Positions 26,262-63,917 of a DNA stretch of 64,000 bases are shown in pieces (positions within the stretch are counted from its first letter, which is position 1; every line of letters starts with the position of its first letter). The position numbers were made by a program, and so were the translations under genes. The notes under the pieces are model-generated. The model did no database searches, was not told where the DNA came from, and saw nothing but the letters and a program-made list of their open reading frames with translations. Location: the NCBI RefSeq assembly GCF_058153355.1, contig NZ_CM177019.1; one strand, 5' to 3'.

Positions 26262-28796
26262 TTAATTACTACCAAACATATCCTTGATCCAACCTGCTAC
26301 GCCGTCACTGTCTTTCTGCTCTTGCTGAGCAGGTTGCTGTTGCGGTTGTTGCTGCGGCTGAGAAGACTGATCAAACGGATTGCCTGACGGTTGCTGCTGA
26401 ATCTCACTCTGCTGGCACAGCGATTGCGGATCGCTGGTCCAGACCGGCAAGACACGCATGCCACCGCTGCAAACAAAGTTGCCGTCGTAGTCCACGCCCA
26501 TATCTGCAATATCTTCTGGTGGAACAAGATTCAGCGGTGTTGGTGTCTGGTTAGCCAGATAACGCTGATAAATCGACATTGCCCCACTGGCACCATACAG
26601 TTTGGTCGGCTGGTTGTTATCACGGCCTACCCAGGTGATGGTCACCGTGCTGCCGTCAATGCCCGCAAACCAGGTATCCACGTTGTTGTTGGTAGTCCCG
26701 GTTTTGCCCGCCAGATGCAGGTTCGGGTATTTCGCCCCAAGCTGACGACCCGTACCGCGTTGTACCACCTGCTGCATGGTCCATAGTGTCAGATACGCCG
26801 CCTGCGCCGGAACCGCGCGTTCCGCCTGCGGGAAGCTCTGATACAACACCTTGCCATCTTCCGCGATTACCGAACGCAGCGCAGAAAGCGGTGCTCGGTT
26901 ACCACCGCTGGCGATGGTCTGGAACGCCTGCGCCACTTCAATTGGCGTTAAGTTCAACGCCCCCAGCAGCATTGCCGGAACCGGATGCAGCTGATCTTTC
27001 GGTACGCCCAGTTTAATCCAGGTATCCGTAACCGCAGGCAGCCCCAACGCCATCCCCAGATTTACCGTCGGCACGTTCATCGAACGAGTCAACGCATCCA
27101 CCAGCATCACTCTGCCACTTTCGCTATAACGACGATCATCGTTCTGCGGTGACCAGACCTGGCCATTCGGCTGACGCAGCGCGATTGGCGCATCGGCAAT
27201 CCACGTGTTCAGGCGATAGATTTTCGGCTGGCTTAAGGCCGTCAGATAAGTCGCTGGTTTTGCAAGGGAACCAATCGAACGACGCGCCTGCATCGCACGG
27301 TTGTAACCTGCAAACTGCGGCTCAGAACCACCAACCATCGCACGAACTTCACCACTAAAGCGGTCGACGACCACAATTGCCGTTTCCAGATCGCTTAACT
27401 TACGCTGTTTCTTCAGTGCCGGAATGCCTTCCACGGCGGCTTTTTCCGCCGCGTCCTGAGCCACCGAGTCAAAGGTAGTGAAGATCTTCACGCCGGAGAG
27501 ATCTTTTACCTTATCGCCTAATTTCGCCTGCAGCTCCTGACGCACCAGTTGCATAAAGGCTGGCTGTGGAGAGATTACCCCACCACGCGGCTGAACCCCC
27601 AGCGGACGTGCACTCAACATGTCATAGAGCTCTTGATCAATAATCTGCTGTTGTTGCAGCAGACGCAGCACCAGGTTACGTCGCTCCAGCGCCAGTTTCG
27701 GGTTACGCCACGGGTTGTAGATCGACGCCCCTTTCACCATACCAACCAACAGCGCCTGCTGGTCGAGACTCAGCTCTTCTACCGGGCGACCAAAGTAGTA
27801 CAGGCTCGCCAGCGGGAAACCGCGGATTTCGTTGTCGCCGCTCTGACCGAGATACACCTCGTTCATATACAGCTCAAGAATGCGGTCTTTGCTGTAACGC
27901 GCATCCATGATCAGCGCCATGTAGGCTTCGTTCGCTTTACGCCAGTAAGAGCGCTCGCTGGAGAGGAACAGGTTCTTCACCAACTGCTGGGTCAGCGTAC
28001 TGGCCCCCTGTACCGTACGACCTGCCATCAGGTTCGCCAGCACGGCACGGCCAATGGAATAGAGACTGATCCCATCATGCTCGTAGAAATGACGGTCTTC
28101 AGTCGCCAACAACGTATCCACCAGCAAGTCAGGGAACCCACTGCGCGGCACAAACAGACGCTGCTCACCGTTTGGTGAAGAGATCATGGTGATCAGGCGC
28201 GGATCAAGACGGAAGAAACCGAACTGACGGTTGTTCTCCATATTGACGATGGTCGCCAGATGATCACCATCAAAAGTCAGACGCGCACGTACCTGCCCTT
28301 CTTTACTGTCCGGGAAATCAAACGGACGGCGGATCATTTCAATGCTGTTGGCCTGCACGGTAAATTCGCCAGGGCGCGTCATTTTCGACACCTGACGATA
28401 CTGGGTCGCCTCCAGCAGCTTCACCATCTCGTTTTTGCTGATGGTCATGTCTGGCTCAAGGTTGACCATTCGGCCATAAACAGCCGCAGGCAATTGCCAG
28501 ACTTTGCCATCAATACGGCTACGAATTTTTTGATCGAGATAAACACCGTAAATGGCGATCAGCACGGCAAAAACGATAGCCAGTTTTAGCAGCAGCCATA
28601 GCCAGCCGCGTTTGCCACGAGGCTTACGCCCTTTGCCTTTGCCCTTACCTTTGCGCGGCATCGGTTCTTCATCCTCATAGTCATCATAATCGTCGTAATC
28701 ATCGTCATCTTCGTAACGACGACGGCTTACCTTTTGTTTGACCGGACGCGTCGGTTTCCCTTTGCGTCCAATTGGCTCGCGGTCATTCCCGGCCAT
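26262..28796 (-). CDS. mrcB: penicillin-binding protein 1B (bifunctional glycosyltransferase/transpeptidase)
   Basis: ORF track frame 26262..28811 trimmed to 844 aa [56 protein letters not shown]... Confidence 0.96.
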
Positions 28797-43608: not shown

Positions 43609-43692
43609 ACCATAAAGGGCTAACACTCATCACTGACATCCCCTACAATGCGCCAATCCTATAGATAACACTTATGACTAACAGGGGTTATG

Positions 43693-44487
43693 ATGAAACC
43701 GACCACCATCTCCTTGCTGAACAAATACAAACAAGAAAAAAAACGCTTCGCCACTATTACCGCTTACGACTACAGCTTCGCCAAATTGTTTGCTGAAGAA
43801 GGACTTAACGTGATGTTGGTTGGCGATTCGCTGGGCATGACTGTTCAGGGGCACGACTCCACACTCCCGGTAACCGTTCAAGATATCGCCTACCACACTG
43901 CTGCCGTACGTCGTGGCGCACCGAATTGCCTGCTGCTGGCTGACCTGCCGTTTATGGCGTATTCCACCCCGGAACAGGCCTTTGAAAATGCCGCCACAGT
44001 AATGCGTGCCGGAGCCAATATGGTCAAAATTGAAGGCGGCGCATGGTTGGTTGAGACGGTACGAATGCTGACTGAACGTGCAGTTCCGGTGTGTGGTCAT
44101 TTAGGTTTAACCCCACAGTCAGTGAATATTTTTGGCGGCTACAAAGTACAAGGGCGTGGCGATGAAGCGGGCGATCAACTGCTCAGCGATGCGTTAGCCT
44201 TAGAAGCCGCTGGTGCACAGTTGCTGGTGCTGGAATGCGTGCCGGTTGAACTGGCGAAACGCATTACTGAAGCGCTGGCGATTCCGGTAATCGGTATTGG
44301 CGCGGGCAACGTCACCGACGGGCAAATCCTCGTGATGCACGACGCGTTCGGTATTACCGGCGGCCATATCCCTAAATTTGCAAAAAATTTCCTTGCTGAA
44401 ACGGGCGACATCCGCGCAGCAGTGCGTCAGTATATAGCTGAAGTGGAGTCCGGGGTTTATCCGGGCGAAGAACACAGTTTCCATTAA
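43693..44487 (+). CDS. panB: 3-methyl-2-oxobutanoate hydroxymethyltransferase
   Basis: 264 aa [55 protein letters not shown]... (second ATG of track ORF). Confidence 0.96.
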
Positions 44488-44498
44488 GGAGTCACGTT

Positions 44499-45350
44499 GT
44501 GTTAATTATCGAAACCCTGCCGTTGCTGCGTCAGCAAATTCGCCGCCTGCGAATGGAAGGCAAACGCGTGGCGCTGGTGCCTACTATGGGTAACCTGCAC
44601 GATGGTCATATGAAGCTGGTCGACGAAGCCAAAGCCCGCGCCGATGTGGTCGTCGTCAGTATTTTCGTTAACCCAATGCAGTTTGACCGCCCGGAAGATC
44701 TGGCTCGCTACCCACGCACCTTGCAGGAAGACTGCGAGAAGCTAAACAAACGTAAAGTGGATCTGGTTTTCGCTCCCTCGGTAAAAGAGATCTATCCGAA
44801 CGGTACAGAAACCCACACCTATGTCGATGTTCCAGGCCTTTCCACCATGCTGGAAGGTGCCAGCCGTCCAGGACATTTTCGCGGCGTATCGACCATCGTC
44901 AGCAAACTGTTCAACCTGGTCCAGCCGGACATCGCCTGCTTCGGTGAAAAGGATTTTCAGCAACTGGCGCTGATCCGCAAAATGGTTGCCGACATGGGCT
45001 TTGATATTGAGATTGTCGGAGTGCCGATTATGCGCGCTAAAGACGGTCTGGCGCTCAGTTCCCGTAACGGCTATCTGACGGCGGAACAACGTAAAATTGC
45101 GCCGGGTCTGTACAAGGTCTTAAGTTCAATTGCCGACAAATTGCAGGCTGGCGAACGGGATCTCGATGAAATTATTGCTATTGCCGGGCAAGAACTGAAT
45201 GAAAAAGGTTTCCGTTCCGATGATATTCAGATTCGCGATGCCGACACCTTGCTGGAAATCGCTGAAAACAGCAAACGAGCTGTGATTCTGGTAGCCGCCT
45301 GGCTTGGCGATGCTCGCCTGATCGACAACAAAATGGTCGAACTGGCGTAA
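44499..45350 (+). CDS. panC: pantothenate synthetase
   Basis: 283-aa ORF (GTG start at 44499) [41 protein letters not shown]... Confidence 0.96.
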
Positions 45351-45355
45351 TACTT

Positions 45356-45482
45356 ATACTCTAAATAATTCAAGTTGCAGGAAGGCGGCAAGCGAGTGAA
45401 TCCCCAGGAGCTTACATAAGTAAGTGACTGGGGTGAGCGAACGCAGACGCAGCACATGCAACTTGAAGTATGACGAGTATAA
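45356..45482 (+). repeat. ERIC (enterobacterial repetitive intergenic consensus) element
   Basis: Contains gtgaatccccaggagcttacataagtaagtgactggggtgagcgaacgcagacgcagcacatgcaacttgaagtatgacgagtata, matching the ERIC core inverted repeat; lies in the panC-rpnC spacer. Confidence 0.8.
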
Positions 45483-45570
45483 CTGGCGCTACGGCTGATG
45501 GCGCCAATTATTAATTTGCCCCACGTCATGACGATGACGTCTGTAAGCGGTTATTCATACCGCAGACAAC

Positions 45571-46515
45571 TTAGTTAATTAGCTTATCAATCTCAGCAAG
45601 AGGTAAATTTGCCATCTCTGCAACGTCTTCCCGAGACATTCCTTTACTCAGAAGACGCAGGGCGAATTCTTGCCTTTCCTCCTGTCTTCCCAGCTGAATC
45701 CCCTTCTCAATCCCCTTCTCAATCCCCTTCTCAATCCCCTTCTCAATTCCCTTCTCAATTCCCTTCTCTTCAAACCACTGCGCCAACGTCATCATAGACT
45801 CCCCTCCCGTTTCCCTGTCTCTCACCACACCATAAAACAAATCCGCTTGTTCAGTATGACCGCGTTGCAGCATATAGTTTTGCATGGCAACTAACTGACT
45901 TCCGCTAGTGTACCCTTCGTCAATCAGCGTGACCAGTTGCTCCAGCAATAACATTAAGTCGCGCTGGCGAATATGTTTTTGCAACAGTTCGAGAATCGCA
46001 ATCCGCCGATGTTGCATGATTTCGTCATCCGGTGTGATAGTGATATCCACCAGCGGGAAAGGACTGTTATAGACGCGTCGCGCCAGCTCCGGCGAGTAAA
46101 ACATATCAAACCAGCACATTGAGAGTGGATAAGGCGTGGCCTCGCCCTGATAAAACAAAATCGGCACCACCAGCGGCAGCTTATCGTGGTCAGCCTCCAG
46201 ATGCCGGTGCATGGCGGCAATAGAATAACGCATCATACGAAACGCCATTTTTTTGTCCGGCTTGCTTTGGTGTTCAATCACAACATGTAGATAGCCCGTA
46301 TTACCCTGCATTTGCACGGAATAGAGCACGTCAGTGCTGTGCCCTTTCAGGCTTTCTTCAATAAAACTCCCCGACTCAAGATGCAGCGTGTCGAGGTCAC
46401 ACAGTTCGCGTAGCTCCGCTGGCAAATGGATATCCAGAAAGTCGCGAGCCGTTTCCACGTGCATTAAAAATTGTTTAAACACCGCATCATGCGGTGTGGT
46501 ACTCGGTGCATCCAT
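45571..46515 (-). CDS. rpnC: recombination-promoting nuclease Rpn family (YhgA-like, PD-(D/E)XK transposase_31)
   Basis: 314-aa ORF MDAPSTTPHDAVFKQFLMHVETARDFLDIHLPAELRELCDLDTLHLESGSFIEESLKGHSTDVLYSVQMQ...; position between panC and panD as for yadD/rpnC; carries an (EKGI)6 repeat. Confidence 0.88.
   Translation of the reverse strand: MDAPSTTPHDAVFKQFLMHVETARDFLDIHLPAELRELCDLDTLHLESGSFIEESLKGHSTDVLYSVQMQGNTGYLHVVIEHQSKPDKKMAFRMMRYSIAAMHRHLEADHDKLPLVVPILFYQGEATPYPLSMCWFDMFYSPELARRVYNSPFPLVDITITPDDEIMQHRRIAILELLQKHIRQRDLMLLLEQLVTLIDEGYTSGSQLVAMQNYMLQRGHTEQADLFYGVVRDRETGGESMMTLAQWFEEKGIEKGIEKGIEKGIEKGIEKGIQLGRQEERQEFALRLLSKGMSREDVAEMANLPLAEIDKLIN
45697..45768 (-). repeat. in-frame 12-bp tandem repeat (6 copies) inside rpnC
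   Basis: aatccccttctc x4 then aattcccttctc x2 on plus strand, encoding EKGIEKGIEKGIEKGIEKGIEKGI on the minus strand. Confidence 0.95.
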
Positions 46516-46788
46516 CTTCCCTGCCTTCCGTGTTGTCTTGCGTGAAGGCAGTATCCAGTCAAGGCGCGCCGTCGTCAGCCGCCTCTTTAGTGTTTACCGA
46601 GCAGCGTTCAGAGAAATTTCAATTGGTTACAGGTGTTACATGGCTCGCTTCGGCACGGTACGCAAACTGCTGATGCAAATGCCGTCAGATGAGTAGACAC
46701 TAAACAAAAATCGGGCAATACTGCGTGAGAATTTCCTCAAAGCAGGCACCGCCTGCTTCGTTAACGACAGGGTAGAAAGGTAGAAGTT

Positions 46789-47169
46789 ATGATTCGCACG
46801 ATGCTGCAGGGCAAACTCCACCGCGTGAAAGTGACTCATGCGGACCTGCACTATGAAGGTTCTTGCGCCATTGACCAGGATTTTCTTGACGCAGCCGGTA
46901 TTCTCGAAAACGAAGCCATTGATATCTGGAATGTCACCAACGGCAAGCGTTTTTCCACCTATGCCATCGCAGCAGAACGCGGTTCGAGAATTATTTCTGT
47001 TAACGGTGCGGCAGCCCACTGCGCCAGCGTCGGCGATATTGTCATCATCGCCAGCTTCGTCACCATGCCGGATGAAGAAGCTCGCACCTGGCGGCCCAAC
47101 GTTGCCTACTTTGAAGGCGACAACGAAATGAAACGTACCGCGAAAGCGATTCCAGTTCAGGTGGCCTGA
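46789..47169 (+). CDS. panD: aspartate 1-decarboxylase
   Basis: 126-aa [63 protein letters not shown]..., Gly24-Ser25 self-cleavage site present. Confidence 0.97.
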
Positions 47170-47172
47170 TAA

Positions 47173-48402
47173 TCACCCCTGCGGCTGGTTACTCACCAGC
47201 CGCGACATCGTCTCCAGCGAATCCGTTCTTAAGATATAAAGCCGTTTTAGTAACAACGGATTATCCCCCGGTTTTACTTTGCCTTTCATGGTGGTCACTG
47301 CCAGATGAAATCCGGCTTCACGTGCCGCCTTCACCGCTTTGTCATTAAAACCGCCAAACGGATAAGAAAGATACAAGACATGTGGATTAAACTGCGCCAG
47401 CGCCCGACGCGATCGCGCAAAATCAAACAGAATATTGTGCTCACTACGGCTCAGTAATATGGGGCGGCGATAGCCATCTACCCGATGCAAAAAATGAGTA
47501 TGTGACTGGAAATCAAATACATCACGAATTTCGTTAAGCTCAGAAATGCTCATAAATTGCAGCGATTTTGGATCCCATTTCTGCGGGTGACGTTTGATGC
47601 GCGAGGTAACAATAAATGCCGTCGCCTTCATACCATAGTGTTTCAACACAGGATACGCATAGCGGCTAACCGACTTGAGACCATCATCAAAGGTAATCAC
47701 CACGGCACGTGCCGGGAGATTAATTTTATTCTGCACGTAACCTTCCAACTGTGTCATGCTCAGTGTCGCGTACCCCCTGTCGCGCAGCCAGGCCATCTGG
47801 TTATTGAAGGCACGTACCGAGGTGGTCGTCGAAGTATGGCGAAAACGGGTGTTTTCTTCGTCGCGCAGAATATGATGATAGGTTAGCACCGGCAGGCCAT
47901 TGTCGGGTTGGGCATCCAGCGCGCTGATATAGGCCAGTCGATCGCCAATACGGATCTGATACCAGATTTGGTTTAACCTGTCTTTCAGTTTATGCAAAAT
48001 CGGATAACGCAAATTGTCCGCCAGTACCCCAAATGGCGCACTGCCCACACTCGGCGCGTTATAAACCGGCGTATCTTTCCAGGTTATTAAGTTCTGATTA
48101 CTCAGCGGCTTGTTGAGGTCACCCAAACCGTCTTCAACCTTTTGTCGCCCCTGAACCGGCTCGAGATGACCTTTATCGATAAACCCTTTGCCAAAACCAA
48201 AATTAAATGCGTAATAACTTGCGGCAGTCGGCTCCACGGCAATGATTTGTCCGGCCCGAATATTCCCTACCGTCACCATTTTGTCGCCAATTTGCGCCCA
48301 GACCGCGGCATTTTCGATGGTTTGCATATAACGGGCAGGCAATGCGGCACTGACGCTTGTGGTAAACAGCATCAGCAGGAGAATAACAGCTTGTTTATAC
48401 AT
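47173..48402 (-). CDS. yadE: polysaccharide deacetylase family protein (NodB-like)
   Basis: 409-aa ORF with signal peptide [20 protein letters not shown]... and deacetylase motifs (VITFDDG, HTH); ends 3 nt from panD stop. Confidence 0.88.
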
Positions 48403-62066: not shown

Positions 62067-63917
62067 ATGAAAATGACTTTGCCGTTTAAACCCCATGTGC
62101 TGGCACTAATTTGCAGTGCCGGGCTTTGTGCCGCCTCTGCCGGGCTATATATAAAAAGCCGCACACATGAAGCGCCTGTGGAACCGCAATCGACACAACT
62201 GGCTGCGCCTGACATCACCGCAGTTACGCTTCCTGCAACGGTTTCCGCACCGCCCGTAACGCCCGCCGTCGTTAAAACCGCATTCAGCACTGCGCAAATA
62301 GATCAATGGGTTGCACCTGTCGCGCTGTACCCCGACTCTCTGCTTTCACAAGTGTTAATGGCATCAACCTATCCGACAAACGTTGCGCAAGCAGTGCAAT
62401 GGTCGCACGATAATCCACTTAAACAAGGCAATGCTACTATTCAGGCGGTATCTGACCAGCCGTGGGACGCCAGCGTCAAATCGCTGGTGGCTTTTCCGCA
62501 ATTGATGGCGTTAATGGGCGAAAACCCGCAGTGGGTGCAAAATCTTGGCGACGCATTTCTGGCGCAACCACAGGACGTAATGGACTCAGTACAGCGTTTA
62601 CGACAACTGGCGCAACAAACGGGGTCGCTGAAGTCATCAACCGAACAAAAGGTCATCACGACAACGAAAAAAGTCGTACCGGCAAATCAGCCCGCTAGCG
62701 CCTCCGCAATACAATCAAATCCCATTTCTACGTCCAGCCCCGTCGTCGCAGGACCTGCACCGACCGTAATAACCATCGAACCCGCCAATCCGGATATGGT
62801 TTATATTCCCAACTACAACCCGACCGTGGTTTACGGGAACTGGGCCAATACTGCGTATCCGCCAGTTTATCTGCCGCCGCCAGCCGGAGAACCGTTTGTT
62901 GACAGCTTTGTGCGCGGATTCGGCTACAGCATGGGCGTTGCTACTACATACGCACTATTCAGCAGCATCGACTGGGATGACGACGATCATGACCATCATC
63001 ATGACGATGATGATTATCATCACCACGATGGCGGTCATCGTGACGGTAATGGCTGGCAACACAACGGCGACAACATCAATATCAACGTCAACAATTTCAA
63101 CCGTATCACCGGTGAGCATCTTACTGATAAGAATATGGCATGGCGGCACAATCCAAACTACCGTAATGGTGTGCCCTATCATGATCAGGATATGGCAAAG
63201 CGGTTTCACCAAACCGATGTCAACGGCGGCATGAGCGCCACGCAGTTACCTGCTCCAACACGCGACAGCCAGCGTCAGGCGGCAGCAAGTCAGTTTCAGC
63301 AACGAACACACGCCACACCCGTCATTACGCGAGATACCCAACGTCAGGCAGCGGCACAGCGGTTTAATGAAGCTGAACACTATGGGAGCTATGACGACTT
63401 CCGCGACTTCAGCCGTCGCCAACCACTGACCCAGCAACAAAAGGACGCCGCTCGTCAGCGTTATCAGTCGGCCTCTCCTGAGCAGCGCCAGGCAGTCCGC
63501 GAGAGAATGCAGACTAACCCGCAGAACCAGCAGAGAAGAGAAGCGGCACGTGAGCGTATTCAGTCAGCCTCGCCTGAGCAGCGCCAGGCGGTTCGCGAGA
63601 AAATGCAGACTAACCCACAGAACCAGCAGCGAAGAGAGGCAGCGCGTGAGCGTATTCAATCTGCCTCGCCTGAGCAGCGCCAGGTGTTTAGGGAAAAAGT
63701 ACAGCAGCACCCACTGAACCAACAGCAACGTGATAACGCCCGCCAGCGTATACAATCGGCATCACCTGAACAACGTCAGGTTTTTCGGGAGAAAGTTCAG
63801 GAGAGCCGCCCACAACGTCTAAACGACAGTAACCATACTGCCAGGCTGAATAACGAGCAACGGTCAGCAGTACGCGAACGTCTCTCTGAGCACGGAGCAA
63901 GGCGACTGGAAAGGTAA
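62067..63917 (+). CDS. yacH: DUF3300 family protein YacH with C-terminal 32-aa tandem repeats
   Basis: 616-aa ORF with signal peptide MKMTLPFKPHVLALICSAGLCAASA, Asp/His-rich tract and repeated ARERIQSASPEQRQAVRE units; position between acnB and lpd. Confidence 0.85.
   Translation: MKMTLPFKPHVLALICSAGLCAASAGLYIKSRTHEAPVEPQSTQLAAPDITAVTLPATVSAPPVTPAVVKTAFSTAQIDQWVAPVALYPDSLLSQVLMASTYPTNVAQAVQWSHDNPLKQGNATIQAVSDQPWDASVKSLVAFPQLMALMGENPQWVQNLGDAFLAQPQDVMDSVQRLRQLAQQTGSLKSSTEQKVITTTKKVVPANQPASASAIQSNPISTSSPVVAGPAPTVITIEPANPDMVYIPNYNPTVVYGNWANTAYPPVYLPPPAGEPFVDSFVRGFGYSMGVATTYALFSSIDWDDDDHDHHHDDDDYHHHDGGHRDGNGWQHNGDNININVNNFNRITGEHLTDKNMAWRHNPNYRNGVPYHDQDMAKRFHQTDVNGGMSATQLPAPTRDSQRQAAASQFQQRTHATPVITRDTQRQAAAQRFNEAEHYGSYDDFRDFSRRQPLTQQQKDAARQRYQSASPEQRQAVRERMQTNPQNQQRREAARERIQSASPEQRQAVREKMQTNPQNQQRREAARERIQSASPEQRQVFREKVQQHPLNQQQRDNARQRIQSASPEQRQVFREKVQESRPQRLNDSNHTARLNNEQRSAVRERLSEHGARRLER
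63450..63815 (+). repeat. 96-bp in-frame tandem repeat (about 3.8 copies) within yacH
   Basis: Units starting 63450, 63546, 63642, 63738; each encodes ~32 aa AR(Q/E)R(Y/I)QSASPEQRQ(AV/VF)RE(R/K)(M/V)Q... Confidence 0.85.

Follow-up and report, generated by a model that had tools for sequence, protein, structure and literature searches.

The rpn genes of E. coli each hold a second coding sequence. All five possess an internal translation start, from which the C-terminal domain is made as a short product, RpnS (Zhong et al. 2023, PNAS 120:e2307382120; PMC10400941). The full-length protein, RpnL, is a toxic endonuclease that RpnS binds and blocks (PMC10400941). The domain common to both products also carries four-amino-acid repeats, each made up of one hydrophobic residue and three residues that are either charged or glycine. 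They begin 8-20 residues past the first residue of RpnS, within a long first helix; in the crystal structure of RpnA_S (PDB 7TH0) this helix makes the dimer interface (PMC10400941). Rpn proteins from distant phyla have repeats of this kind in the corresponding position (PMC10400941).

For RpnC of K-12 there are published experiments. RpnC_S was detected by SPA tagging, ribosome-profiling data were presented for rpnC (Fig 2D, 2G, PMC10400941), and an internal start site in the gene was cited from dRNA-seq (PMC10400941). The RpnC repeats were aligned (Fig 4B, PMC10400941), and their length was manipulated in a dinD-lacZ SOS reporter assay. One extra KGIE in RpnC_S only is sufficient for RpnC_LS to be no longer counteracted, and the reverse is also true; when both partners receive the extra KGIE, neutralisation is back (Fig 4D, PMC10400941). 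A commentary (PMC10400984) concurs with this account of the RpnC repeat.

Two further systems are among the closest known. RpnA_S (7TH0), the short product of the paralogue rpnA, is a three-helix bundle with a long, dimerising first helix that contains the repeat insertion point (PMC10400941), although the crystallised K-12 protein is without an expanded array. The second is HsdS of EcoR124I/EcoR124II, whose TAEL repeats are cited as a precedent in PMC10400941. There too, a 12-bp, four-amino-acid unit sits in a helical spacer and its number sets specificity. HsdS and RpnC are not homologous, however, and the HsdS repeat determines how far apart two DNA-recognition domains lie, so that the DNA target shifts from N6 to N7, whereas that of RpnC sets the pairing of a toxin with its intragenic antitoxin.

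Here we describe an rpnC allele with six EKGI units, found in a 64-kb stretch of E. coli DNA (64,000 nucleotides, referred to below as the window). Very probably, its array is the key to partner matching in the RpnC toxin-antitoxin pair, a gene within a gene whose four-amino-acid (dodecamer) repeat is hypervariable. The repeat, its strain variability and its length-matching role are already known, having been published in 2023 on the KGIE unit of RpnC. The first-pass annotation had presented a variable repeat in such a nuclease as unusual enough to deserve attention, a view that does not hold, variable four-amino-acid repeats being a published hallmark of Rpn proteins (PMC10400941). Likewise, its suggestion to examine whether repeat length affects RpnC activity had been anticipated by experiments on this same repeat (PMC10400941).

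The rpnC locus and its internal start

The features of the locus, all on the minus strand, are as follows.

45571..46515, minus strand: rpnC (yadD), encoding full-length RpnC_L, a PD-(D/E)XK-type nuclease and putative toxin (314-aa ORF; TIGR01784; RefSeq annotation; synteny)
45895..46497, minus strand: N-terminal YhgA-like nuclease domain, aa 7-207 (PF04754 Transposase_31, E 3.6e-87, model positions 1-201/203)
45799..45808, minus strand: candidate internal Shine-Dalgarno, GGGAGGGGAG, codons G-G-E of RpnC_L (read from the sequence)
45571..45795, minus strand: rpnC_S, gene within a gene for a putative intragenic antitoxin of 74 (or 73) aa, from ATG-ATG at 45795/45792 to the shared stop
45697..45768, minus strand: (EKGI)6, six 12-bp units, residues 10-33 of RpnC_S and 250-273 of RpnC_L (Tandem Repeats Finder and codon-level listing)
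45664..45696, minus strand: second, degenerate 12-bp/4-aa array, QLGR-QEER-QEF, adjoining the EKGI array (C-terminal alignments of L004, L005, L011 and P0012-P0024)
45574..45645, minus strand: conserved C-terminal, helix-turn-helix-like part of RpnC_S (...LLSKGMSREDVAEMANLPLAEIDKLIN), kept in all alleles (AF2 helices; weak HTH-type matches)

The 314-aa product scores 290.5 bits against the Rpn family model of NCBIfam, TIGR01784 (cutoff 52.1). Among the NCBIfam models that match it, only this family-level model passes its cutoff; the equivalog models (ISNCY family transposase, RpnA) stay below theirs, with for example 327.8 and 306.2 bits vs 583. The gene is flanked by panC (44499-45350, +) on one side, with panB (43690-44487, +) beyond it, and by panD (46789-47169, +) on the other. 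A megablast of the gene found rpnC annotated by RefSeq at the orthologous panD-panC place in 5424 of 5426 complete E. coli genomes. The PF04754 and TIGR01784 matches, the panD-rpnC-panC synteny and the RefSeq annotation thus confirm the initial identification of the gene as rpnC, of the Rpn family. By eye, the segments ..STDVLYS.. and ..VVIEHQSK.. of window RpnC lie where the D and E-x-K/Q motifs with the catalytic acidic residues of the nuclease core would be expected from RpnA. A PADLOC v2 run on the protein returned only weak, unrelated matches ('putative invertase' C3a178, RmrA), and there is therefore no Rpn model in that library.

The closest complete genome is that of strain 2013C-4282 (L001), whose rpnC is 99.4% identical to that of the window, array excepted. 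Over panB-panC-rpnC-panD-yadE (~44071..48015) the two sequences are 98.6-98.9% identical. The panC-rpnC-panD part (~44835..47115) is only ~93-95% identical to K-12 (L002). Core genes of E. coli seldom diverge this much, and the region may be recombination-prone or come from a divergent lineage.

The K-12 gene shares with that of the window its place between panD and panC, the internal Shine-Dalgarno and ATG-ATG, the position of the EKGI/KGIE units and the C-terminal helices. The two differ by 51 substitutions, by unit number (two in K-12 vs six in the window), by the residues that follow the array (QQGR-QEVS in K-12, QLGR-QEER in the window) and by the C-terminus (..KVINLI and ..KLIN, respectively). 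The figure of ~300 aa given in the first-pass annotation for K-12 RpnC, against 314 aa here, proved correct, K-12 derivatives carrying a 903-bp, 300-aa rpnC. The 14-aa gap results from four fewer EKGI units in K-12 (-16 aa) and a C-terminus that is 2 aa longer. By the published length-matching rule, window RpnC should belong to a different specificity class from K-12 RpnC.

Tandem Repeats Finder reports 45697..45768 as one array of period 12 with 6.0 copies, 98% matches, 0 indels and a score of 130; its consensus on the plus strand is AATCCCCTTCTC. On the coding strand the array reads as two copies of GAGAAGGGAATT followed by four of GAGAAGGGGATT, occupying gene nt 748-819 in the register E-K-G-I, and the units are identical except for a synonymous GGA/GGG. 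The protein context is ...AQWFE(EKGI)6QLGRQEERQEF.... The program output, the raw sequence and the codon listing thus agree with the original description of six in-frame 12-bp repeats encoding (EKGI)6, and so does their location in the C-terminal region of the gene, at residues 250-273 of 314. Chance cannot explain the array, because its 60 bases that can be compared with the base 12 positions upstream all match it but one, which by a simple calculation has a probability of ~1e-34 per position.

This is the most exact of the five arrays detected by Tandem Repeats Finder in the 64-kb window. Elsewhere in the window, a 96-bp tandem repeat at 63453..63804 (3.7 copies, 80-88% match) would be translated into Q/R/E-rich units of 32 aa, and probably lies in yacH, judging from its map distance to panD. 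Weaker short arrays occur at 62980..63029 (21 bp x 2.4 copies, ACGACGATCATGACCATCATC) and at 28669..28716 (18 bp x 2.7 copies).

The sequence elements for separate production of the C-terminal domain, namely an internal ribosome-binding site and a start, are present in window rpnC. The segment GGGAGGGGAG-TCT-ATG-ATG spans 45808..45790 on the minus strand, the Shine-Dalgarno being 3-6 nt upstream of the ATG-ATG. Both elements are conserved: in 16/16 rpnC alleles compared, GGGAGGG(G/A)AG is kept and the ATGATG of gene nt 721 shows no change. A consensus scan found no sigma-70-like promoter near the internal start of rpnC_S, the nearest minus-strand site being at 46259..46232. The array begins at residue 10 of the 74-aa RpnC_S, inside the published 8-20 range, and its unit follows the published composition rule (E and K charged, G glycine, I hydrophobic).

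A single-sequence AF2 model of window RpnC_S (mean pLDDT 85) predicts a helix over residues 4-50 (4-11/13-50), which covers array residues 10-33, and then two short helices at 55-62 and 66-73. This predicted helix order is the same as in RpnA_S. RpnA_S is too divergent in sequence for phmmer with RpnC_S: 7TH0 was absent from the PDB matches, which held only a designed 'CAP REPEAT' helix-turn-helix-like protein (E 2e-4). A Foldseek search of the monomer model against the PDB gave nothing below E 0.5 and did not recover 7TH0 either; structural placement of the repeat therefore rests on the AF2 model and on PMC10400941. The top Foldseek matches, which are not significant, are HTH domains and a resolvase long helix plus HTH, and they suggest that the end of RpnC_S is HTH-like.

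The following sequence of events would account for the role of the array. Internal translation, toxicity, neutralisation and length-matching specificity are taken from the literature; the present analysis covers the anatomy of the gene, conservation of the internal start, helix prediction, and variation in copy number with its stepwise series. By analogy with the published system, RpnC_L would be a toxic DNA endonuclease. Its last 74 codons would be translated separately from the internal Shine-Dalgarno and ATG to give RpnC_S, which would bind RpnC_L through the common C-terminal domain and block it. The model places the (EKGI)n units within a long first alpha-helix, the presumed dimerisation interface. 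By standard helix geometry, each unit would extend the helix by ~6 A and turn the part downstream by ~40 degrees, which offers a plausible reason why only partners with an equal unit number would fit. Since one stretch of DNA encodes both toxin and antitoxin, gaining or losing units would re-key the two together. Such changes would occur by whole 12-bp gain or loss, most simply through replication slippage between identical units.

Unit number across E. coli

The arrays were read in 21 orthologous loci (L001 to L021) fetched from E. coli genomes. The number of EKGx units runs from 0 to 9, with every value seen:

0 units: L008, and the RQEV-type alleles L004, L005 and L011
1 unit: L007
2 units: K-12 (L002), O157 (L009), L012
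3 units: L001, L015, L006
4 units: L017
5 units: L018, L021
6 units: the window, CFT073 (L013), L014, L016
7 units: L020
8 units: L003
9 units: L019, and protein P0001

The first-pass annotation had supposed that copy number may vary between strains and had proposed this comparison of E. coli genomes; unit number does vary, over the whole range listed, and is not identical in all strains. The anchors CAGTGGTTTGAAGA and GAATTCGCC are conserved around the repeat region.

Protein clusters at 90% identity mask copy-number variation (one such cluster has 4,509 members), and systematic samples and synthetic queries were used instead. All matching records (5424) were ranked and sampled systematically twice, with 60 records per sample, which gives a rough distribution. 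Two EKGI units are present in ~60% of the sampled records, and ~25% lack EKGI units and have an expanded RQEV array instead; one or three units account for a few per cent each. Six-unit alleles are estimated at ~1-2%, as they fill ranks 6-60 among the best matches and no longer occur from about rank 90. Synthetic queries with 4 and 5 units found ungapped matches in the genome collection; the intermediates therefore exist.

The exact 314-aa RpnC of the window was absent from a 15-billion-protein collection (exact look-up), and no identical rpnC allele was found among 5,426 complete E. coli genomes, the nearest alleles having 3 or 4 units. The window allele is new, the phenomenon is not.

The arrangement of the units allows some of the steps to be retraced. 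Writing A for GAGAAGGGAATT and G for GAGAAGGGGATT, the alleles with the QLGR-QEER-QEF backbone read A-G-G in L001 and L015 (three units), A-A-G-G in L017 (four) and A-A-G-G-G-G in the window (six). Over ~910 aligned bases, window rpnC has 5 substitutions relative to L001 and 4 relative to L017. As judged from these unit orders, a three-unit array can become the six-unit array in no fewer than two events, the gain of one A unit and the gain of two G units. Arrays of 5, 6 and 9 units occur on the CFT073-type backbone and arrays of 5, 6 and 7 units on the L014-type backbone. Single-unit allelic series are thus found on at least three gene backbones, and in each of the three series the expansion consists of locally identical units. 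The six-unit arrays on the three backbones differ in codon pattern, which indicates that, at the level of sequence, they arose independently on different backbones. All indels seen are multiples of 12 and the reading frame is kept in every allele. The allele pattern is as expected of slippage, and we infer that slipped-strand mispairing is the mutational mechanism.

The second array and the stand-alone genes

The degenerate QLGR-QEER-QEF array next to the EKGI units is itself variable. In other strains it reaches up to 7-8 RQEV-type units, mostly in alleles without EKGI units; as read from the alignments, rpnC carries two adjacent variable arrays. Many RQEV-expanded strains also carry, downstream, a separate 65-77-aa gene annotated as 'RpnC/YadD family protein' (rpnC_Ss). 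Loci L004, L005, L010, L011, L014, L016 and L018-L021 were considered for this gene and for the rpnC-panC spacer in which it lies. The rpnC_Ss genes are homologous to the RpnC C-terminal domain and have four-residue units of their own (FQKG, RQEV) at the same position.

In contrast, rpnC_Ss is absent from the window. From the stop of rpnC to panC there are 220 bp in the window (45351..45570), against 73 bp for K-12 and ~290-300 bp for strains of the O157 type. Three-frame translation and tblastn revealed no rpnC_Ss gene or remnant in 45351..45570, the only match being to rpnC's own C-terminus. A terminator-like hairpin lies in the rpnC-panC spacer at 45484..45506 (plus strand).

Two more distant Rpn homologues (P0047 and P0048, ~70% identity) have an EGRQ-QGRL-EGRE-EGHL-EGLQ run at the same position, in agreement with the published lineage-specific repeat type of Rpn.

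Alternative readings and significance

A stronger reading, which we put forward tentatively and hold to be possible rather than probable, is that (EKGI)n serves as a fast stepwise re-keying device, driven by recurrent selection or by promoted expansion, and that the window allele is a newly arisen specificity class. The 3 to 4 to 6 progression on one backbone, together with the independent six-unit arrays, suggests recurrent selection for changing, perhaps particular, lengths. Alternatively, expansion might be promoted instead of arising from plain replication slippage; for example, the RpnC nuclease might act on rpnC itself, as Zhong et al. 2023 speculate (PMC10400941). Selection by phage would be one possible driving force. 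Antiphage activity has been shown for plasmid RpnP2, not for chromosomal RpnC (PMC10400941). A tblastn search of RpnC_S against 50,697 phage records gave no match at E <= 1e-3 and so lends no support, at a sensitivity limited by the low-complexity filter and the short query, to the idea that an antitoxin mimic carried by phages drives the variation.

It could be argued that the array is a functionally neutral in-frame microsatellite, the helix tolerating any number of EKGI units and the variation being slippage noise. The variation is indeed what slippage alone would give, and the two-unit state is shared by more than half of the sampled genomes (see above). Yet one extra KGIE in a single partner abolishes neutralisation (Fig 4D, PMC10400941), repeats of this kind recur in that position both in Rpn proteins from distant phyla (PMC10400941) and in the rpnC_Ss genes, and only whole 12-bp indels are seen, no array being frame-disrupted. 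Neutrality is, for these reasons, an improbable explanation.

Even less credit can be given to an assembly or sequencing artefact inflating the window copy number. What speaks for it is the absence of the exact allele from the protein collection and from the complete E. coli genomes, as reported above. At 72 bp, however, the array is shorter than ordinary reads, like arrays (3-9 units) occur in many complete genomes, among them arrays of 6, 7, 8 and 9 units, and the A-A-G-G-G-G order of the window extends the A-A-G-G of a near-identical four-unit allele. An artefact is therefore very unlikely.

Finally, an on/off phase-variation switch (contingency locus) acting on rpnC expression through slippage, which a tandem repeat within the coding region of a defence-type gene might bring to mind, has practically no likelihood, since the 12-bp unit is a multiple of 3, so that its gain or loss never shifts the frame, and the full reading frame is intact in 21/21 alleles (the window plus 20 distinct fetched ones); frameshift phase variation of rpnC is thereby ruled out.

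We therefore return to the array as the partner-matching repeat of RpnC. What is added here to the published account is modest: the stepwise series, the independent six-unit origins, the second variable array and an exact allele absent from the databases searched. The mechanism of repeat expansion and contraction was said to warrant 'further study' (PMC10400941), and a literature search for later work on it, after 2023, yields only Zhong et al. and the commentary. The 3/4/6, 5/6/9 and 5/6/7 series, on near-identical backbones, bear on this question of expansion: locally identical units are gained or lost whole and mostly one at a time, as slippage would have it. As for annotation, rpnC_S should be entered as an additional coding feature inside window rpnC, and rpnC alleles that differ in length should not be taken for errors.
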